Shown here: positions 6,503 to 51,659 of the stretch, piece by piece
How the letters are laid out: each line of letters opens with the position of its first letter
Position numbering within the stretch: position 1 is the stretch's first letter
Virus record (IMG/VR): IMGVR_UViG_3300006108_000017
Location: 1 to 56,213 of that record
DNA from: a virus
Lineage: Duplodnaviria > Caudoviricetes
Direction: 5' to 3' (one strand)
Length of the DNA: 56,213 nt
Made by a program: the position numbers and the translations under genes
The notes under the pieces: model-generated
What the model was told of the DNA's origin: nothing
Databases searched by the model: none
Seen by the model: only the letters and a program-made list of their open reading frames with translations

Positions 6503-6751
6503 TTATTGGCTCTTCCACGGCTCAAACACTCGCTCCATCAGTTCGCGAATGTCGGGAACGCGCTTGGCGTCCATGAGAAGATCCAAGTGCTCCTGCTCCA
6601 GCTTGAATGGTTCTTCTTTGATTGACACGCCGAGCTTCTGCTTGGCCCAATGAGCTGCACGATGTGTGTCTACATTTCCGTACTGGTCACAGAAGTTGTA
6701 GAAGATCAACAGAATGTCGATCTCCAACTTGGTGACATCAGGCTCATTCAT
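6503..6751 (-). CDS. Hypothetical protein
   Basis: Start MNEPD behind AAGGAG, downstream of the tmRNA terminator. Confidence 0.65.
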   Translation of the reverse strand: MNEPDVTKLEIDILLIFYNFCDQYGNVDTHRAAHWAKQKLGVSIKEEPFKLEQEHLDLLMDAKRVPDIRELMERVFEPWKSQ

Positions 6752-6770
6752 TTGTACGCGTCTCCTTGTT

Positions 6771-6800
6771 AAAAATGGGAGACCCCCGAAGGAGCCTCCC
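6771..6800 (-). terminator. Intrinsic terminator of tmRNA
   Basis: GGGAGGCTCC-TTCG-GGGGTCTCCC-ATTTTT. Confidence 0.85.
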
Positions 6801-7127
6801 ACCTAACCGTTCGGTGACAAGGTGGTCAGCCTCGTGAGGACTTAAGCCGCGAGGGCTACCTCAAATGCGTTATCGTTAGCATTTACTTTTTTCGCTTCCC
6901 TTAGGGGGAACGCCTATCCTGTCGCGCCCGTCATCTCAGCAACACTGTCGAAACTGGTCGGGCCCATGATTAAGCATTTGGCATCTCAACTGATACTTTT
7001 GGACACAGGTGCCGGTTTTACGGCTGAGCCAAATGCTTAATGGTGGACCCGCCGGGAATCGCACCCGGGTCCAATGTTCTTCAAGTCAAGTCGAATTACG
7101 ACAATCATCTCGGCCTTACGGCTTCGA
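6776..7127 (-). ncRNA. ssrA: Circularly permuted (two-piece) tmRNA
   Basis: Acceptor piece ~7127-7041 with T-arm CCGGG-TGCGATT-CCCGG then CGGGTCC-A-CCA; intervening segment 7040-6966; coding piece from 6965 GGGCCCG; 7-bp acceptor stem with G3:U70; tag ANDNAFEVALAA* at 6880-6842; outer ends approximate. Confidence 0.93.
6842..6880 (-). other. tmRNA tag reading frame (A)ANDNAFEVALAA*
   Basis: GCT AAC GAT AAC GCA TTT GAG GTA GCC CTC GCG GCT TAA preceded by AAAAAAGTAAAT. Confidence 0.9.
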
Positions 7128-7133
7128 TATTCT

Positions 7134-7162
7134 ATTTTATACCGCCACCACCAAAAGTAAAC
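7134..7162 (-). promoter_or_regulatory. Early promoter for tmRNA
   Basis: GTTTAC...TAAAAT. Confidence 0.75.
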
Positions 7163-16356: not shown

Positions 16357-17648
16357 CAAATCTCCACGATCTTGTCATCACGATCACGTTCGAAAGTCGG
16401 GAACCGAAGAGAGGCAACTTCCTTGCTCTTCGACTTCGAAACTTCCTGGTACTTGATCACCACCGTCCGGCCCAACCAAGCTTCTTGGTTGTTCCAGATT
16501 TCGTTGCGAAGTTCATCGCTGAAGCCGCTGCCGACATTGCACTCGACACGGGTACCGTCCTCGGTAAAGCCGACCACGATCAGACCACCAAGGGTGTTCT
16601 CCAGGCGGGTCTTCTTTCGACCATTGTAGAAGCCGACCACGCGGCAGTCCGCATCATAGAAGCGCTTCACCTTGCACCAGGCGAGAGTGCGATCCCACTG
16701 ATACGTGGCGTCCCAATCCTTCAGGATCAGGCCTTCGACCTTGTGGATATCGATCGCTTCGTTGCAGAAGTTCATCATGTCCTGATAGTCGGTAACTTCA
16801 CGACCTTCAGAGATGATGATCTTCTCGCACTGGTACCGATGCAGGAGCACCATCAGTGCAGACCGGTTGGTCTTCATGGTGATCTGAGTTTCCTGCGCCA
16901 GCCAATCGGACAGCGGCATCAGGAAGAAGGCGCGGAAGCGGAGGTTCTTCTTCGCTTCGTCGTTACCGGACTTCTTGGCGTTCATCGTCTCGGTAAAGTT
17001 GGAAGCGTAGCGCTCACCATCGAGAACAAAATCGTATTCGAGAGCCTTGCGAATGCGGAAGAGTTCCTCATCGAACAGGCCGTTGACGTGAACCGCTTCC
17101 TTGCCGCTCCGGCTGTAGTAGGTGACGCTGTCTTCCTTGACGATCGCGATGGTGCGCTCACCGTCGTACTTGAAGTCCGCCATGCAGGGGAAGGTGATGT
17201 TCTTCTCGAAGTCTTCCACTTCCTCGCATTTGTCTGCGAGCATAACCTCGAAGGTGGGGACCAGACCAGGGAAGATTTTGTTGACCGTCGAAGCGGAGAA
17301 GCCGCCGCGAAGGTCCTTGTCGATGATGCGCTCGAGGTAGGAAGCGGTTTCCTCGGTGAAGCAGGAAAGCATCCACGTGACTGCCTCTTGGGCCGCAGTT
17401 CCGGTCAACTCGCGAGAAGCAAGCCGATCGAGGGTCTCAAAGACGATGCTGATTTGGCCATCGCTCTCAGAGTACTTCGTCGGACGATCGAACTTGCGAA
17501 CTCCGAAAACGCGGTACGAGTTGAGCGCTTCAGAGATCAGATTTTGGGCCGGCTTATCGGCCATGGACAGAGCGTCCTTGATGGCGTTTTTCGTACCGGC
17601 ACCACCTGCATTTTCACAGGCTTTGACAACATCGACGAAGTTGGTCAC
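16356..17648 (-). CDS. lig: ATP-dependent DNA ligase (T4 gp30-like)
   Basis: KYDGER, LDGE, EGLILK, WCKVK, VGSGFS and SLRFPTF. Confidence 0.95.
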   Translation of the reverse strand: MTNFVDVVKACENAGGAGTKNAIKDALSMADKPAQNLISEALNSYRVFGVRKFDRPTKYSESDGQISIVFETLDRLASRELTGTAAQEAVTWMLSCFTEETASYLERIIDKDLRGGFSASTVNKIFPGLVPTFEVMLADKCEEVEDFEKNITFPCMADFKYDGERTIAIVKEDSVTYYSRSGKEAVHVNGLFDEELFRIRKALEYDFVLDGERYASNFTETMNAKKSGNDEAKKNLRFRAFFLMPLSDWLAQETQITMKTNRSALMVLLHRYQCEKIIISEGREVTDYQDMMNFCNEAIDIHKVEGLILKDWDATYQWDRTLAWCKVKRFYDADCRVVGFYNGRKKTRLENTLGGLIVVGFTEDGTRVECNVGSGFSDELRNEIWNNQEAWLGRTVVIKYQEVSKSKSKEVASLRFPTFERDRDDKIVEI

Positions 17649-21249: not shown

Positions 21250-22311
21250 TTAGACAGCGTAGAGCTTGTGAAGAACCTTCAGCTTCCACTGCTCGAACTG
21301 CTTCTCCAGTTCAGGCGTCCGTTCTTGCAAGATAGATGCGTTTACCGCTTCATCCACCTTCTCGAATGCGACGTTTAGGTGTTCTGTCGCCTCATCGAGC
21401 GACATTTTCCCGCTCTTTATGGTAGCAAGCATTTTCGCATTCGGACGAGGGAACACGAGATTCCCAGTCGCCGTCAGCTCGAGGACCTGCTCTGTGATCC
21501 TGATAGCGTGGCTCAACGCTTTCCAGTCCACTCCTTGGCCCTCGAAGTCCTTCACGCGCTCACCATACCCGCGCATCACCTTCTCAAGGCTGTCACGAAC
21601 GGTAGGCAGCTTCGAAGAGTACGTGAACTGCTTGCCCGCCATTTCAAGGGAAGGAGCCATTTCGGTTCCACCCTTGGCGTTCAGAACTTCAGACTCTCGC
21701 ACGTGGGGAAGAGCGAGCAGCTTGGCGAGGAGCTCAGTGCTTTCGCCCAGCGTGATCTTCGCGTATTCCCTTTCATCGGGATAACCGAGCTGGTGCGCTT
21801 CAAGGAGCTTGATTGCCGCTCCTATCGTCGCGAACCGCTCTGTCTTCAGACCGTAAACCTTGGCCTGGGACACAGCATACCCAACCATCTTCTTCACGTT
21901 GCGAGTGAGGAAGTTGTCGATCAGCGCATTGACCATCTCGACGCAATAGTCGAAGGACGACTGCTCGTTAGGATCGAACGGGTTCTCGTCAAGGAAGCTC
22001 GTCGACGTGTGAAGACGCTGCTTCACGGCAAACGCGGTCTCGAGAGCGTACGTTTGTCCATTGAAGAAGTCGTCGAGGAAAACCTGAAGGGGAAGATATT
22101 CGGTCTCTTCCTCACCGGCGACCATCCTATCTCCAGCCTTCAGGCCCTCGGGCTTCACCTTCCGGTTGGTGACCTTCTTGTTGAGAAGAAGGTCATCCAG
22201 AGCCGGGAGACAAACGACCTTGTAGTCGTAGTCAGAGTTCTCGTTGGCGGTGCCGTAAAGGCGCGAGCCAGAAAGAACTCTGAACAGAGCCGTTTCCTTA
22301 TCAACCTTCAT
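21250..22311 (-). CDS. Pol-beta superfamily nucleotidyltransferase (T4 NrdC.11 / RlaP-like)
   Basis: LSGSRLYGT...SDYDYK and WKALSHAIR. Confidence 0.85.
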   Translation of the reverse strand: MKVDKETALFRVLSGSRLYGTANENSDYDYKVVCLPALDDLLLNKKVTNRKVKPEGLKAGDRMVAGEEETEYLPLQVFLDDFFNGQTYALETAFAVKQRLHTSTSFLDENPFDPNEQSSFDYCVEMVNALIDNFLTRNVKKMVGYAVSQAKVYGLKTERFATIGAAIKLLEAHQLGYPDEREYAKITLGESTELLAKLLALPHVRESEVLNAKGGTEMAPSLEMAGKQFTYSSKLPTVRDSLEKVMRGYGERVKDFEGQGVDWKALSHAIRITEQVLELTATGNLVFPRPNAKMLATIKSGKMSLDEATEHLNVAFEKVDEAVNASILQERTPELEKQFEQWKLKVLHKLYAV

Positions 22312-23419
22312 CTTCACTCTCCATAACCATTTCGACTTGGCGCATCCGCTCGGCGTTCATAGCCTCACCTATCGCCTTGCCTTTCAGATGTTGGAACTCA
22401 GAAGAACCAACAGCTCGGGTCCGACCGACCGCGGCCAGCAGCGTCCTTCCCTTTATGGGGAAGAAGGCTCCAGCATCTTCAGCAACCATCAGGGCCATGA
22501 CCAGGTCCATTATCTGGTTGTTGTTCTGGTCGAACGCTCGATTGTGCGCCATCAGCACGAACAGCTTTTCGGCTGAACGATCGTGCATGTGGCGAACGTG
22601 CTCAACGTTTTCCGACAGCTTTTTCACTCGCGTGGGTATGGCGGTCGATTGTTGAGGAGCGTTCCTCGCGGCCAGTGCCGTGAACACCGTAGAACGATCA
22701 GCTTCAGTCAGCAGCCGCGAAACCGAAGCGGTGTAAGCGGCAAAGTCCGTTTGGAACTTTCCCTTGCTAACGTCACCGAACAGATCGCGGAAGAACCGAA
22801 CCCGTTGCAGAGCTCCAAAGCGGAACAGTGCTTCGAAGAAGCGGAAAGGATTTCCACCTTGAGTGAAGACCTTTTCCATTTCCGCCCAGAAGCGCTCATC
22901 GCTCAGGGAGTCCATCTCGCCAGATTGGACTATGTTCTTCGCCATGACCTCCGTGTTAGGAGCTATGGTGAAGTCCGTCCAACGAGCAAAGAAGCGAGCC
23001 AGGCGAACCACCCGCAGAGGGTCTTCAGCAAACGCTTCAGACACATGCCGCAGAACCTTCGCCTCCATGTCGGCCTTGCCATTGTAGGGATCGGCTATCT
23101 CGCCGGTCTCTATGTCCATGGCTATGGCGTTCACGGTCAGATCGCGACGGAACAGATCGTCCGCCAGAGAAACACTGGGGTCGAACTCTACCTCGAAGCC
23201 GTGGTAGCCAGCACCAACCTTCTTTTCCTTGCGGGCCAGAGCGTATTGGTCGCCGTTCTTGTCCAGGAAAACCGGGAAGCTGTGACCAACCGTTTCAGCG
23301 GTGAAGCCCAGAGCGGTCATATCCGCAGGGGTGGCACCAACCACAACGTAGTCATGGTCGTGGCTTTCCAGACCCATCAGTTGGTCTCGAACCGCTCCTC
23401 CAACCAGATACATTTTCAT
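22301..23419 (-). CDS. cca: tRNA nucleotidyltransferase (CCA-adding, class II)
   Basis: YLVGGAVRD, DHDYVV, RRDLTVNAIA and EDPLRVVR. Confidence 0.93.
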   Translation of the reverse strand: MKMYLVGGAVRDQLMGLESHDHDYVVVGATPADMTALGFTAETVGHSFPVFLDKNGDQYALARKEKKVGAGYHGFEVEFDPSVSLADDLFRRDLTVNAIAMDIETGEIADPYNGKADMEAKVLRHVSEAFAEDPLRVVRLARFFARWTDFTIAPNTEVMAKNIVQSGEMDSLSDERFWAEMEKVFTQGGNPFRFFEALFRFGALQRVRFFRDLFGDVSKGKFQTDFAAYTASVSRLLTEADRSTVFTALAARNAPQQSTAIPTRVKKLSENVEHVRHMHDRSAEKLFVLMAHNRAFDQNNNQIMDLVMALMVAEDAGAFFPIKGRTLLAAVGRTRAVGSSEFQHLKGKAIGEAMNAERMRQVEMVMESEDEG

Positions 23420-25456: not shown

Positions 25457-26002
25457 TTAGGCCGTAACGATGGTGGCTTCAGTGCCAACCGACGGGCTGA
25501 ACGTTCCAGCGGCACGAATGGCCAGCTTGACGGTGTCGATCGCGTCGTCAAGCGACTTTGGCTCGTGGTGCTTCAGCGTCGTAAACACGCTGGCACGAGC
25601 GTACTCTTCACCAGAACCAACCGCGTTGTAGCCGAGGACGGAGCGAAGAACGCTGTAGTCCGGCTGAAGTTCCCAAAGCTGACCGCGAACACCGATAAGT
25701 GCGTTGCCGCCCTCGCTGTCCTTGCCGTAACCGCTTTCCTTCAGTGCGCTCTTGATGTCGGGGACGACGACCGTAATCAGCCAGCGATAGATGTCGTCAG
25801 TGTCCTCTGGAACAACCGGGTCAGCAAGCATGTGCTCAAGAACCTGGCCGAATCGATAGCTCGAGGTGTAGCCGAAGACCACGCCCTTCTTGTTGAACAC
25901 CTTTGGCTGAGTGTGAACGATCTTGTTGTTCCAGCCGGTGCCCTGAACATCACCACCGATGATGACCTTGTTCTTGTATTCCAATCCGACGATACACGTC
26001 AT
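25457..26002 (-). CDS. hslV: HslV / proteasome beta-like Ntn peptidase
   Basis: N-terminal nucleophile M-T-CIVG, GGD, PKVF and AVGSG. Confidence 0.82.
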   Translation of the reverse strand: MTCIVGLEYKNKVIIGGDVQGTGWNNKIVHTQPKVFNKKGVVFGYTSSYRFGQVLEHMLADPVVPEDTDDIYRWLITVVVPDIKSALKESGYGKDSEGGNALIGVRGQLWELQPDYSVLRSVLGYNAVGSGEEYARASVFTTLKHHEPKSLDDAIDTVKLAIRAAGTFSPSVGTEATIVTA

Positions 26003-26577
26003 ATGATCTCCGTTGCGATAAGATGAAGTTGGAGTATGATGACCATCGCGTACGCAATGGCATGGGATTTTTTGAACGAGTAGCCATTCTCGTCCTTGGC
26101 ATACAAAGCTCTGCGGGTAGCTTCCCGCTGAGAGTTGTAAAGCTTGACGAGCTGCTTCTTTCCTGGACGGATGAGGGCAAGAACGTCGGCTAGTTCCTCA
26201 ATGTTCTTCGGCTTTACCGCCGAAAGAATGTCACCGTGGTTGGAAAGCTGGAAGAGCTTCTTCTGCTCAGAAGGAATGGTGAGAAGGCCCCAATCTGGTT
26301 CGATCTCCAGAAGCTGTTCGATCTCCTCGCGCGATTTGAAATGGTCGTAGACGCTGAGGTGCAGGAAGTCGATCTTGATGTAGCCCTCTTCCTCGGCCTG
26401 CTCGTAGGGGATTGCAGAAAGACCGGTGACCGGATCAACCGGAACAGTCTGGGGATAGATGCCGCAGGGATGGGGCGCGAGGTCACCGTTCTTCACGAGT
26501 GACGCCTTGGTCCAGGGGAACAGCTTTCGTGGGTTGAAGTCAGTTCGAAGATCGATGTCTACGTCAGGTAGCTTCAC
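25999..26577 (-). CDS. dnaE: Miniature DNA polymerase III alpha-like, catalytic (C-terminal) piece
   Basis: PDVDID, HPCGIY, KIDFLHL, LFQLS, LALIRPG and GYSFKKSHAIAYA, all DnaE motifs in order. Confidence 0.88.
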   Translation of the reverse strand: MKLPDVDIDLRTDFNPRKLFPWTKASLVKNGDLAPHPCGIYPQTVPVDPVTGLSAIPYEQAEEEGYIKIDFLHLSVYDHFKSREEIEQLLEIEPDWGLLTIPSEQKKLFQLSNHGDILSAVKPKNIEELADVLALIRPGKKQLVKLYNSQREATRRALYAKDENGYSFKKSHAIAYAMVIILQLHLIATEII

Positions 26578-32561: not shown

Positions 32562-32936
32562 ATGATAGACATCCCATATTATCCTGGGTACAAACTAACA
32601 GAAGATTTTCAGGTTATCGGAAAGAAAGGATTTCCTCTGTCTTTTTCGGGTAGTCCTTATCAGCTCTGCAACGTTTTCGTAAATGGCAAATCATCTATCC
32701 TGTACAAACACCGGGCCATCGCTCTTGTGCATGTTCCTGGATATTTTGAAGGCGCAGAGGTTGATCACAAAGATCGTGATCCTACTAACAACCATCCGTC
32801 AAATCTCAGGTGGGTTACTCCAGCTGAAAATGCGCAGAACATCAGCCTCGAGCACGTTGAAGAACAGATACGCCTAACTAAAATGCGTCTAGCTAAACTA
32901 GAACGTCAGCGAAAGATGATATTGACTCTGCGTTAA
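32562..32936 (+). mobile_element. Free-standing HNH endonuclease (I-HmuI / NUMOD4-like)
   Basis: HRAIA, VDHKDRDPTNNHPSNLRWVTPAEN. Confidence 0.88.
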
Positions 32937-33460
32937 TCGTGGAAGAACTCTGTCATATCGATGTTGAATTTCACTGGATCGACCTTGTGAAGCCCGATAA
33001 GATAGAGAACCAGTGAGGCGCATGACGATCCTCTTCCAACTCCCCAAACCGTTTTCGTGCTCTTCAGGGTTTCTACCACGTAGATCAGCGTCCTGAAGAA
33101 CTTGTCCATGTTCATCTTCTTGATCATGGCAAGCTCATTGTCGGTTCGGCGCGCGTAGATTTCCAACTTGTCTTCTGGAAGGTTGAGAGCCAGAAGTTTC
33201 TCACCGACATATTCTGCCAGATCGATCTTCAGGTATTTCTCAGGCACCTGCCAATCCTTCAGGAAGGGATCATTGCCGGTTTTCGTGTTGGCGATGGGCT
33301 CTTCTGAAAGGGCGTTGAACTGCAGAATGTCGTCATTATTGTCAGTAACGACGATCTTCTCGATCGGAACTTCCATGAGCAGCAGGTCTGGGACCAGCTC
33401 GGGGGATACCTGACTGGTCCCATCGAACCAAAGCGTTCTGTTTTTCAGTTCGGTTTTCAT
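32933..33460 (-). CDS. dnaE: Miniature DNA polymerase III alpha-like, N-terminal piece
   Basis: WGVGRGSSCASLVLYLIGLHKVDPVKFNI..EFF matches DnaE GxGRGSxxxSLVxYxLGITxxDP. Confidence 0.88.
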   Translation of the reverse strand: MKTELKNRTLWFDGTSQVSPELVPDLLLMEVPIEKIVVTDNNDDILQFNALSEEPIANTKTGNDPFLKDWQVPEKYLKIDLAEYVGEKLLALNLPEDKLEIYARRTDNELAMIKKMNMDKFFRTLIYVVETLKSTKTVWGVGRGSSCASLVLYLIGLHKVDPVKFNIDMTEFFHD

Positions 33461-37537: not shown

Positions 37538-38338
37538 CTATTTATCGAACAGAATCGCTTGGACGTTTTCTACCTTAGGCAGATGGTCGTAGCACTCGAG
37601 ATTGACGGTCGATCGCAGAACCTTGCCATGGGGGCGATGATGGGCTGGGATGTTGGCGAGCTGCTCAGGGCTCAGTTCCGTCTCAGCGGTCCGACGCTTT
37701 GCGAAGGTGCCGAAGCGGAACGACATGGGCTCGTCTTCCCAGGGATGTTCGATTTCCACAAGCATCTTTTTCTTCTGCTCGCTTCCAACACCCTGCAGCT
37801 GCTTGTGGGAGAAGTGGGCCTGGGCGGCCATCGAGATGGAGTTCTTGATGCAGTCCTCTTGGCGCCACAGATAGTTCAGATAGACGTGGTGCATGTCGGG
37901 AACGTTCCACACGCGACAGTCGAAGTGCGGGTAGAAGTTTTCCTTTTCGCGGAGAATCGAAGGAATGCGCCGTGAGAAGTATGAGGAGGCCATGCCGGCC
38001 AGCACTGAGGTCAGCTTTTGGAACTTCCCGCCGAAGGGATATTCGGAGCCGGTCAGAGCGTACTGCTCCGGGGTTCCGTTGTACCAGCACAGGGTGATCT
38101 CATCGGACTGACAGTAGCCGACGATCGCGTGGGTTTCCTCGACGAGGAACTTCATCGTGTCCTGCATCAGCATCGTGAGACGCATGTCGTACGGACGCTG
38201 AAGACCCTTCGTGAAGGTGTGGAACGCGCGGCCATCGAGGCGAGCCATCAGAGGCAGCCCGCGGTCTGCGGCCCGACCGGCTTCGGCCTGCTCTTGCGCC
38301 TTGAGCTTGTCGCCCAGAGAGTCCTTAGATTCAACCAT
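37538..38338 (-). CDS. thg1: tRNA-His guanylyltransferase Thg1-like (3'-5' polymerase)
   Basis: RLDGRAFHTFT, YCQSDEITL, HFDCRV and WRQEDCIKNS. Confidence 0.93.
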   Translation of the reverse strand: MVESKDSLGDKLKAQEQAEAGRAADRGLPLMARLDGRAFHTFTKGLQRPYDMRLTMLMQDTMKFLVEETHAIVGYCQSDEITLCWYNGTPEQYALTGSEYPFGGKFQKLTSVLAGMASSYFSRRIPSILREKENFYPHFDCRVWNVPDMHHVYLNYLWRQEDCIKNSISMAAQAHFSHKQLQGVGSEQKKKMLVEIEHPWEDEPMSFRFGTFAKRRTAETELSPEQLANIPAHHRPHGKVLRSTVNLECYDHLPKVENVQAILFDK

Positions 38339-38764: not shown

Positions 38765-39208
38765 TTACAGCTCAAGGTCTTCGACGTACTCTTCGCCGAG
38801 GATCAGACCAAAGTTGATGTTGGGGAGACCTTCTATGCGGTCGTAGTACGCATAGGAGAGGGTGACGTGCGGAATAAATTCCGGATAGTCGTACGCGAGC
38901 TTGTACGTGCTCATGAAATAATGATGGCGCTCAACGATTGTCGGCGCGTTGAGCTTCACCACGAGAACGTTTCGTTCACCTTGAGCGTTGGTGAACATCT
39001 CGTAGCCGGCAAACGTAGCGACGTGCTGCGTAATCGGATCCACCTTGATGTCCGGTGCGTGGATGCGGCTGTAGATCACCGTGGTGTGCAGGCGCTTCTC
39101 AAACGTAGATGTTTGAACCGGGATGTTAGCGGTTTTGCAGTGATTGTACAGGTACGTGGAGAAAGGCCGCAGAACGCGGAGGGCTACATACGAGCCGGCT
39201 GGAGGCAT
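38765..39208 (-). CDS. acb1: 2H phosphoesterase, Acb1 / T4 gp57B-like anti-CBASS nuclease
   Basis: LHTTVIYSR and FIPHVTLSY HxT pair; 147 aa; early promoter upstream. Confidence 0.82.
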   Translation of the reverse strand: MPPAGSYVALRVLRPFSTYLYNHCKTANIPVQTSTFEKRLHTTVIYSRIHAPDIKVDPITQHVATFAGYEMFTNAQGERNVLVVKLNAPTIVERHHYFMSTYKLAYDYPEFIPHVTLSYAYYDRIEGLPNINFGLILGEEYVEDLEL

Positions 39209-50493: not shown

Positions 50494-51045
50494 TTAGCCC
50501 AGGTGGAGTGTCATGGTTGTGGGTTCAACACCCAGACCATCGACGTGCAGGATGAAGTCGGCTTCAGAGCCGAGCAGCATGGCCTGCTGCCGCATGTACA
50601 TGTCCCTGACGACGTGCTCAGGGACGGACTTATCTCCACGCGTGCTTTGACGATCGATGACCGTCTGCAGGGGAGCGTGCACCTCAACGGCGCAGATAGA
50701 GAAGCCCTTCTGGCGAGCTTCCTGGATCCAACGAGCGCGCGACTTGCGGGTCAGGTTGGTGTTATCAACGAACAGAACATCCGCCTTGAGGGCTTCGTTC
50801 CATTCCTTGTTCACGTGGTTGTTGAACTCAGCCGGCTTTTCATTCGCGTAGGCGAATGCACCAGCGTAGACGGCCGCTTCCGAAGGGCGGCCAGTTGCTG
50901 GACCGCTCTTGAAGAAGAACGACAGGCGGCAATCGTCCAAAGAGAACGTCTTCACCGTGCCTTCAGCTTTTTCAGCCAGAGCTCGCATGGCGGTGGACTT
51001 GCCAGCACCCGAAACCCCAACCATGATGTAGCAAGTCTTAGGCAT
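50494..51045 (-). CDS. Polynucleotide-kinase-like P-loop kinase (AAA_33)
   Basis: GVSGAGKST, SLDDCR, VDNTNL..R and RQSTR..VP; TAATG coupling to the HD gene. Confidence 0.85.
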   Translation of the reverse strand: MPKTCYIMVGVSGAGKSTAMRALAEKAEGTVKTFSLDDCRLSFFFKSGPATGRPSEAAVYAGAFAYANEKPAEFNNHVNKEWNEALKADVLFVDNTNLTRKSRARWIQEARQKGFSICAVEVHAPLQTVIDRQSTRGDKSVPEHVVRDMYMRQQAMLLGSEADFILHVDGLGVEPTTMTLHLG

Positions 51046-51659
51046 TAGACGCTTTCCCATTCGTTCATCCAGACATCCACCGCGGCCAGCTTTTCAGCTT
51101 GACCATCAGAGATGCGGCCGTGTTGATCGCTCAGCAGCAGGTCCAGCCAGGCGCGATGTCCAGCTTCACCCATGCGCAGCATGAAGGAGTCTTTCAGGTT
51201 CTTCCGCTTGGCCTTGTCCTTCAGACCGAACGGGACGTGGTACTCCAGCATCATCGAGATGTTGGACACGTCCTCGATAGAGAACTTCAAAAGGTCCTTG
51301 GTCAGATGGCGGTTAGCCAGAGCGTAATCAACCCAGATGCGGGCGGACAGCTGCTCATGCCCGTGGTACGCTCGGTATTCGCCACGCTCCTCAGAGAACT
51401 TGGTGATCTCCGCAGGGGGCTTGCCGACATCGTGGAAGAGACACGCGACCAGCGTGGTCATGCGTTGAGTGTCTGACCGCTTGTCGGCCAGATTTTCCAT
51501 GTACCACTCGATCAGCATGCGAGTGTGAACTCCAACGTTCTCCTCGCGGTGCCAGGGAGAGTCCTCACGCGTGTTGACCATCGCCAACCAGAGGTCCGTC
51601 TTTCGGAACTCCGCGAAGAAGGCGTTGAAGTTGGTAACTGCGTCGGACTTTACAGACAT
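51045..51659 (-). CDS. HD-domain phosphohydrolase (RNA-repair type)
   Basis: SPWHRE..VGVHT, FHDVGK, HGHEQLSA and SDQHGR; own GGAGA RBS and promoter. Confidence 0.85.
   Translation of the reverse strand: MSVKSDAVTNFNAFFAEFRKTDLWLAMVNTREDSPWHREENVGVHTRMLIEWYMENLADKRSDTQRMTTLVACLFHDVGKPPAEITKFSEERGEYRAYHGHEQLSARIWVDYALANRHLTKDLLKFSIEDVSNISMMLEYHVPFGLKDKAKRKNLKDSFMLRMGEAGHRAWLDLLLSDQHGRISDGQAEKLAAVDVWMNEWESV

Follow-up and report, generated by a model that had tools for sequence, protein, structure and literature searches.

The stretch of DNA analysed here, hereafter the window, comprises the 56,213 nt of virus record IMGVR_UViG_3300006108_000017, a fragment that IMG/VR rates as 15% complete. 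Its minus strand carries a permuted gene for transfer-messenger RNA (tmRNA), in which a promoter-like site is followed by the 3' tRNA-like half of the molecule (the acceptor piece), an intervening segment and the 5' half with the tag frame (the coding piece; Table 1). ARAGORN called this single tmRNA in the whole window, in permuted form (6751-7133, minus strand, tag ANDNAFEVALAA). With Infernal, the Rfam model RF04321 (tmRNA_permuted) matched the gene over its full length (model positions 1-213 of 213; 116.5 bits against a gathering threshold of 47, E 4e-22), and so did RF01850 (beta_tmRNA; positions 1-331 of 331, 94.8 bits against 84, E 2e-27). When the models of the Rfam tmRNA clan competed on the window, the beta model was the top scorer and beat all others, the alpha model included. 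No riboswitch was found in the window by Rfam. The first-pass annotation of this DNA had proposed a permuted two-piece tmRNA with a T-arm, the string CGGGUCC-A-CCA ending at 7041, a 75-nt spacer, GGGCCCG at 6965, a tag frame ending in LAA and a hairpin with a UUCG loop; all of these lie on the minus strand where it had put them, and ARAGORN and both models, above their gathering thresholds, bear the call out.

Table 1. Coordinates of the tmRNA gene, of its elements and of other features in the window.
Feature	Coordinates	Strand	Basis or remark
Sigma-70-like promoter (-35 TTTACT, 7161-7156; 16-nt spacer; -10 TAAAAT, 7139-7134)	7134..7161	-	predicted
Acceptor piece (3' tRNA-like half)	7041..7103	-	Infernal alignment, pair counts
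P2c, 5' strand UGUCG	7103-7099	-	Infernal
P2a, 5' strand AAC.UUG	7078-7072	-	Infernal
T-arm CCGGG-UGCGAUU-CCCGG	7068-7052	-	sequence
CGGGUCC-A-CCA (3' acceptor strand, discriminator A, encoded CCA)	7051-7045, 7044, 7043-7041	-	
Intervening segment, 75 nt	6966..7040	-	presumably excised
Coding piece	6776..6965	-	Infernal
5' acceptor strand GGGCCCG	6965-6959	-	G1 = 6965
UUCGAC box	6952-6947	-	
P2a, 3' strand CAG.GUU	6947-6941	-	Infernal
P2c, 3' strand CGACA	6924-6920	-	Infernal
Hairpin in the pseudoknot 1 (PK1) region, UUCCC-CCUAA-GGGAA	6910-6896	-	
Tag frame: resume codon GCU (6880-6878), 12 codons (ANDNAFEVALAA), stop UAA (6844-6842)	6842..6880	-	ARAGORN
3' hairpin loop motif CCUUGUCACCGAAC	6809..6822	-	signature common to Rhodocyclales two-piece tmRNAs
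Terminal hairpin GGGAGGCUCC-UUCG-GGGGUCUCCC, then A-UUUUU	6777..6800	-	RNAfold; aligns to the last RF01850 hairpin
82-residue open reading frame, family-less	6503..6751	-	directly downstream of the tmRNA gene
tRNA repair and maturation genes	22301-23419, 37538-38338, 38765-39208, 50494-51060	all -	PHROGs

The two halves form the 7-bp acceptor stem with G3:U70 (a G:U pair at position 3) that had been predicted, with all seven pairs counted and an A as discriminator, the features of alanine identity. The predicted pairings of helix 2 (P2) also reappeared in the Infernal alignment, where P2a (AAC.UUG with CAG.GUU) and P2c (UGUCG with CGACA) are fully paired and P2b contains one non-pair. Co-folding by minimum free energy (MFE) recovered the acceptor stem, the T-arm, the P2a part of P2 and the terminal hairpin. 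The tag frame starts with an alanine resume codon, preceded by U at -5 and A at -4, and ends with a hydrophobic-Ala-Ala degron and a stop. The true 5' end of the acceptor piece perhaps lies near 7127.

Related records were gathered via a neighbouring protein, and among them are genomes that are complete and have terminal repeats (368 kb and 343 kb). A permuted tmRNA gene was present at the syntenic position in four of them (L121, which is the complete 368-kb genome, L123, L124 and L127); record L122 stops short of the site. Together with the window gene these form a clade of five genes, in which the acceptor stem is paired at 7/7 positions throughout and shows compensatory changes at positions 4-6 (double changes GGGCCCG/CGGGUCC, GGGGAUG/CAUCUCC and GGGCCUG/CAGGUCC). 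G3:U70, the discriminator A and a paired 5-bp T-stem were found in all five genes, and P2a and P2c are maintained by double changes within wholly different sequences. In 5/5 genes a hairpin that covaries and has the loop C(C/G)UAA lies upstream of the resume codon, in the region of the putative PK1 pseudoknot, and the 3' loop motif is likewise present in all five. The tags of the relatives differ (ANDAFFGEELRLAA, ANDSQFRIAA, ANDSVYEDLRLAA and ANEANFLMAA), and all have alanine at the start and xAA and a stop at the end. The U at -5 and the A at -4 are important in the tmRNA of E. coli, and they are kept in 6/6 genes when that of Ralstonia phage RsoM2USA is included. The identity of the gene as a tmRNA, its architecture and its conservation with covariation are established here.

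We consider it very probable that this is an intact two-piece tmRNA gene of the betaproteobacterial type, that it is a T4-like jumbo phage's own gene (the phage having a genome of about 370 kb and standing near RsoM2USA) and that it would serve host-dependent ribosome rescue. Several points weigh against this reading. The margin of RF01850 over its gathering threshold is small. The early promoter of the first-pass annotation is present as a TTTACT-16-TAAAAT site matching 9 of 12 positions, and a comparable site lies 42-70 nt upstream of the T-stem in 4/5 clade genes; one site was found against 1.1 expected in shuffled sequences, so the match is not significant alone. The proposed UUCG terminator has its hairpin followed by A-UUUUU and is likely an intrinsic terminator; the terminator scan did not call it. 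P2c was not recovered by MFE co-folding, and two of the four pairs of the PK1 hairpin as modelled by Rfam are non-standard in the window. The T-loop has a G where tRNAs and one-piece tmRNAs have a pseudouridylated U, a variant that is common. Finally, no tmRNA of either form is over the cut-off in the complete genomes of two more distant relatives (343 kb and 205 kb; marker protein 52% and 35% identical), and because of this absence the tmRNA is dispensable in the wider group.

The spacer between the two pieces contains a 13-bp closing stem (arms 7040-7028 and 6982-6970), which begins directly after the CCA and stops 4 nt (UCAU, 6969-6966) short of G1. Spacers of the clade measure 41, 75, 77, 88 and 165 nt and are unrelated in sequence in the five genes. 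In all five, a stem of 10-13 bp opens with the first base past the CCA or one adjoining it and closes so that 4-5 nt (U-N-A-U) separate it from G1, and this stem at a fixed offset from G1 looks like a conserved processing architecture. The 165-nt spacer of L124 also starts a 63-codon ATG open reading frame (ORF) that reads on into the coding piece (17218-17409, plus strand).

The comparison covered at least 119 viral loci, picked up by a pattern built on the T-arm and acceptor, of which ARAGORN called 77 as permuted and 11 as standard and gave no call for 31. It also covered at least 120 bacterial loci, collected with a pattern specific to permuted genes; ARAGORN called 107 of these as permuted. 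The bacterial loci are mostly from Rhodocyclaceae, Azonexaceae and Zoogloeaceae, with some from Cupriavidus and Herbaspirillum. Further sets comprised 30 alphaproteobacterial permuted genes and 30 one-piece Burkholderiales genes; one-piece genes were over the cut-off in 73 of 81 genomes, a tally that counts one unpublished genome whose sequence was left out. The CCA is encoded in 5/5 clade genes, compared to 12 of the 94 parsed bacterial beta-type genes, where the base at the last CCA position is C in 49, T in 32, A in 12 and G in 1. Of the 30 alpha genes, a first parse could split only two, each with an encoded CCA; a second parse, which itself searched for an encoded CCA, covered 26 of the 30. 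The phage of the window also encodes a CCA-adding enzyme. The T-loop UGCGAUU, which the first-pass annotation had noted, is not an oddity: among the matches listed it occurs in 37 of 119 viral loci, as well as in 2/30 alpha genes. It is found in 0 of the 94 parsed bacterial beta-type genes among the matches listed, all of which have UUCGAUU.

Most of the 58 long ORFs scanned against PHROGs are on the minus strand. They include a T4-like replication and nucleotide module (UvsX, UvsY, a gp32-like single-stranded DNA-binding protein, clamp loader, helicases, split DNA polymerase pieces, ribonucleotide reductase, ligase and deoxycytidine monophosphate deaminase), whose genes flank the tmRNA gene on both sides and on the same strand. 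Genes for salvage of nicotinamide adenine dinucleotide are present, as is a tRNA-repair set consisting of the CCA-adding enzyme (22301-23419), a Thg1-like guanylyltransferase, an RNA ligase and a polynucleotide kinase; ARAGORN found no tRNA genes in the 56-kb window. The DNA polymerase appears as separate short ORFs (25999-26577 and 32933-33460, minus strand) that match different parts of phrog_405 and could be a split gene or one interrupted by an intein or intron. Among cultured phages, the closest UvsX is that of Ralstonia phage RsoM2USA (344 kb, 59.7% identity), followed by those of jumbo phages of Stenotrophomonas, Xanthomonas and Agrobacterium (35-43%). The complete relative of 368 kb and the completeness estimate of 15% together put the genome of the phage at about 370 kb.

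This setting bears on the question of whether the tmRNA gene is host DNA, be it the remnant of an attachment site, the flank of a prophage or a bacterial fragment placed in the wrong bin. Such an origin is conceivable since integration at tmRNA genes is common and flanking DNA can end up in viral bins, and several loci of the viral scan do lie at contig ends. However, both halves of the window gene are complete and lie 6.7 kb and 49 kb from the ends of the window, inside the same-strand phage replication module; the gene is syntenic in four phage contigs, one of them a complete genome with terminal repeats, and 0 of the 58 scanned ORFs match an integrase family. Searched as an exact 32-mer, the 3' half gave no match in 185,579 species genomes and none in viral contigs. 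We therefore judge a host origin extremely unlikely and retain the phage's own gene. A blastn search of 50,697 phage records gave no match to the gene, the tool possibly excluding its own record and near copies. One independent freshwater DNA run contains the gene with 0 differences. The runs containing window sequence are freshwater DNA metagenomes, with no RNA run listed among them, and short run matches at 7040-7073 are T-arms from other organisms. A role as an integration target was considered and set aside: in its accessible text, the paper on jumbo phages and genomic islands (PMC12595487) deals with islands located next to the tmRNA genes of hosts and not with tmRNAs of phages.

The first-pass annotation had also raised an independent permutation, and the 3' domain was informative here. 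The domain was scored as beta-type when the loop motif lay about 140-157 nt from G1 and was followed by a terminal hairpin. In the window gene the loop motif CC[UC]U[GA]U.A...AA lies 143 nt from G1, the same distance as in Azonexus. Among the genes listed, it was found in 93 of 105 Rhodocyclales permuted (beta-type) genes and in 20 of 77 other viral genes, and it was absent from the alpha-type genes (0/30) and from the one-piece Burkholderiales genes (0/30). The 20 viral loci most like the window gene (the best 20 of at least 119) were typed as 14 beta, 3 alpha and 3 matching the merged model only, which shows the beta type of permuted tmRNA to be widespread among viral contigs. The window gene mixes traits: its encoded CCA, its UGCGAUU T-loop and its 12-residue ANDN tag are alpha-like or virus-like, while its whole 3' domain is beta-like.

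An unrooted IQ-TREE tree of 156 rows placed the one-piece genes (support 100/100) and the alpha genes (99/87) each on one side of a branch. The window gene grouped with L124, L127, L119 and L112 (99/93), and L121 and L123 fell elsewhere on long branches. In the comparisons as in the tree, the closest relatives of the window gene are all viral. A larger set (98/86) unites the window group, the Rhodocyclales permuted genes and the one-piece Burkholderiales genes. Within it the nominal sister of the five-member window group is the one-piece set (89/80), and the backbone is weak, with support between 13 and 86 at several nodes. Near-duplicates within a group were dropped (above 93% identity in the first tree, above 90% in the later two), as were standard-form viral genes and unparsed loci (2 viral and 13 bacterial in the first tree, 2 bacterial in the second). 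In the first two trees, rooted at the midpoint or on the alpha genes, the bacterial beta clade appeared inside a viral grade; this arrangement was discarded, its rooting being unsafe once the one-piece genes were added. Because the trees are unrooted and weakly supported, they do not show which way the gene was transferred.

Taken at face value, the sister position in the best tree would suggest that a one-piece betaproteobacterial tmRNA was permuted within the phage lineage itself. We consider this very unlikely: the derived 3' loop motif and its distance from G1 are common to the window gene and the Rhodocyclales permuted genes and occur in none of the 30 one-piece genes, and the RF01850 match is full length, both 3' hairpins included. 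Moreover, a grouping of the window genes with the Rhodocyclales permuted genes was not rejected by the approximately unbiased (AU) test (log-likelihood difference 1.31, p 0.485). On the grounds of this shared motif and distance, the full-length match and the AU result, we conclude that the window gene would represent the beta-type architecture and not a separate permutation.

A wider scenario, which we regard as doubtful, is that bacteria alone did not invent the third lineage of two-piece tmRNA: a single permutation would be shared by Rhodocyclales chromosomes and a much more diverse phage radiation, with phages as the vehicle, and possibly the source, that would have replaced the one-piece ssrA in a Rhodocyclales ancestor. 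That radiation may include the jumbo-phage clade described here, RsoM2USA and the extra copies in Cupriavidus and Herbaspirillum. The Rhodocyclales genes form a tight, short-branched clade (support 100) beside or within long-branched viral diversity, which favours this scenario; against it stand the unrooted tree with its weak backbone, the high viral rates and a tree set without cyanobacterial or wider one-piece genes, and phage capture from Rhodocyclales would give an identical pattern. Permuted tmRNAs were also seen in Cupriavidus, Herbaspirillum, Noviherbaspirillum and Pseudomonas indica (L162, L197, L138, L186, L195, L159, L191; G008-G010). The Cupriavidus genome G008 has two RF04321 matches over the cut-off and a third, weak one, and the Herbaspirillum (G009) and P. 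indica (G010) genomes each have one over the cut-off and one weak match. Some of these bacterial-genome copies have long atypical tags and cluster with viral genes in the trees; the copies may be prophage-borne or island-borne extras.

Transcription, processing sites, charging, tagging and a benefit to the phage are what we infer from the conserved elements. A single precursor, running from the sigma-70-like promoter through the acceptor piece, the 75-nt spacer and the coding piece, would fold so that the 13-bp spacer stem stacks on, or extends, the acceptor stem, giving a pre-tRNA-like substrate. RNase P would cleave before G1 (6965) and produce the 5' end, and host nucleases would trim the spacer back to the encoded CCA (7041), leaving two RNAs held together by the acceptor stem and helix 2. 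The host alanyl-tRNA synthetase (AlaRS) would charge the molecule via G3:U70, and host SmpB and EF-Tu would bring it to ribosomes stalled on broken mRNAs. Translation would restart at GCU and append ANDNAFEVALAA, so that the ribosome is freed and the tagged protein passes to host proteases. As the first-pass annotation had reported, there is no smpB in the window; none was found in any of five related records, three of them complete, and since no SmpB is encoded, host factors would be needed. The probable benefit to the phage would be additional rescue of stalled ribosomes at a time, during infection, when host mRNAs are being cut or broken down. That the gene may counter host anti-phage RNases, as the first-pass annotation had suggested, finds circumstantial support in the tRNA-repair genes nearby, which suit a theme of translation kept running under nuclease stress.

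The lack of a phage SmpB would also suit an RNA that hinders trans-translation in the host, as a decoy or an inhibitor, by soaking up SmpB, AlaRS or ribosomes without itself rescuing any, as would the departure of the T-loop from the UUCGAUU of the bacterial genes; such a role is reported for a tmRNA-like form of mycobacteriophage DS6A that has no coding sequence. A pure decoy would need none of the tag frame, the stop or the resume context, and these are intact in the window gene and kept, with the alanine start, the xAA end and U-5/A-4, in five diverged relatives. This counts against a decoy, which we find quite improbable. The same mechanism might instead serve chiefly to remodel the proteome, host or early phage proteins being degraded for amino-acid recycling or timing and rescue being secondary, as was proposed for phage Melnitz in the accessible text of Buchholz et al. 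(PMC9004378). Phage tags are far more varied than bacterial ones, which suggests altered downstream handling; the bacterial tags are near-uniform, with ANDERFALAA (41) and ANDEQFAIAA (23) among 108 ARAGORN calls in the 120 loci listed. However, since the action of tmRNA is confined to ribosomes that have stalled at the end of an mRNA, remodelling would need an extra factor to be selective, and none was identified; the varied tags also still terminate in protease-recognised xAA. We hold remodelling as the main purpose to be unlikely, and ribosome rescue remains our preferred reading.

The 82-residue ORF directly downstream of the tmRNA gene has counterparts of 44-58% identity at the same place in L121, L123, L124 and L127, in contrast to the variable genes upstream of the tmRNA; the ORF and the tmRNA may form a cassette. 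It has 38 unnamed homologues and no match at E <0.05 in Pfam, PHROGs or the sequences of the Protein Data Bank (PDB). The AlphaFold2 model is confident (predicted local distance difference test 89.1). A structure search with Foldseek gave a best E of 0.44, and the best VIA-align hit (Z 4.6, to winged-helix regulators) is below the level that the tool takes as meaningful. The ORF was not seen beside other tmRNAs (0/119 viral, 0/120 bacterial and 0/30 alpha loci listed, most with short flanks) and was not found in the 3.2-kb RsoM2USA locus.

The known carriers of two-piece tmRNA are thus extended by a clade of jumbo phages of about 340-370 kb, which includes a cultured phage of a Burkholderiales host. 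New details are the closing stem of the spacer at a set offset from G1, the encoded CCA, the unannotated homologue in RsoM2USA and the 82-residue downstream ORF. Three traits of the phage genes can be tested: the encoded CCA, a spacer that is free in length and sequence with a closing stem 4-5 nt before the 5' end, and reliance on host SmpB. There is also a lesson for annotation, as pipelines that use tRNAscan-SE only overlook such genes. The understanding of how tmRNA works is unchanged by this gene.

RsoM2USA illustrates that lesson. Its permuted tmRNA gene lies in a feature-less gap of the GenBank record (MG752970.1, 331592-331926; L312 1422-1733, minus strand) and scores 92 bits with RF01850 and 96.7 bits with RF04321; its tag reads ANDSRYAVAA in the frame of the Rfam alignment and DRRVEQSTLFHAPG in ARAGORN. 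The paper on this phage (PMC8504454) annotated RNAs with tRNAscan-SE only, and the word tmRNA is absent from the accessible text of that one paper. Both this gene and that of the window are beta-type and belong to related phages. Unlike the window gene, that of RsoM2USA occupies another genomic position, does not encode the CCA (ACC-C) and has a short spacer and the T-loop UUCGACU.

Compared to the alpha two-piece tmRNA (RF01849, Caulobacter type), the window gene has the permuted order and the encoded CCA in common. Among the 30 alpha genes, the second T-loop position is G in 25, the whole loop is exactly UGCGAUU in two and the T-stem is CCGGG/CCCGG in 24; their tags have 12-13 residues and start with ANDN, as does the 12-residue tag of the window. 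Unlike the window gene, they form a clan of their own in the tree and lack the 3' loop motif. The closest bacterial counterparts are the Rhodocyclales ssrA genes matched by RF01850 (Azonexus/Dechloromonas, Thauera, Azoarcus and Accumulibacter), which have the same gene order, the same core of acceptor, T-arm and P2, the same 3' domain of two hairpins with the loop motif 143 nt from G1, and a tag of the form AND...AA. The window gene differs in being phage-borne, in encoding the full CCA, in its UGCGAUU T-loop and in its tag of 12 residues instead of 10. Its spacer of 75 nt (41-165 in the clade) is longer than the bacterial median of 28 nt, which comes from a search pattern that allowed only about 38 nt.

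Among phages, the accessible text of Buchholz 2022 (PMC9004378) reports 53 unique two-piece forms in 18,146 phage genomes, 50 of them aquatic, and states that three permuted lineages are common to bacteria and their associated phages; a 2025 tmRNA database counts, in its accessible text, 79 unique bacteriophage tmRNAs and 11,946 permuted sequences (PMC11915505). Melnitz, a phage of OM43 with a genome of 141.5 kb, is described by Buchholz (PMC9004378) as carrying a two-piece, alpha-type ssrA with a glutamine riboswitch in the 3' domain. As far as that text goes, Melnitz and the pelagimyophages resemble the phage of the window in being T4-like and aquatic and in having a complete permuted ssrA behind an early-type promoter, without smpB; the window gene differs from that of Melnitz in being beta-type, in having no riboswitch by Rfam and in belonging to a phage of about 370 kb. 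The novelty implied by the first-pass annotation thus does not hold, as phage two-piece tmRNAs had been published in that work; the kind is known, and the window gene is a conserved member of it.

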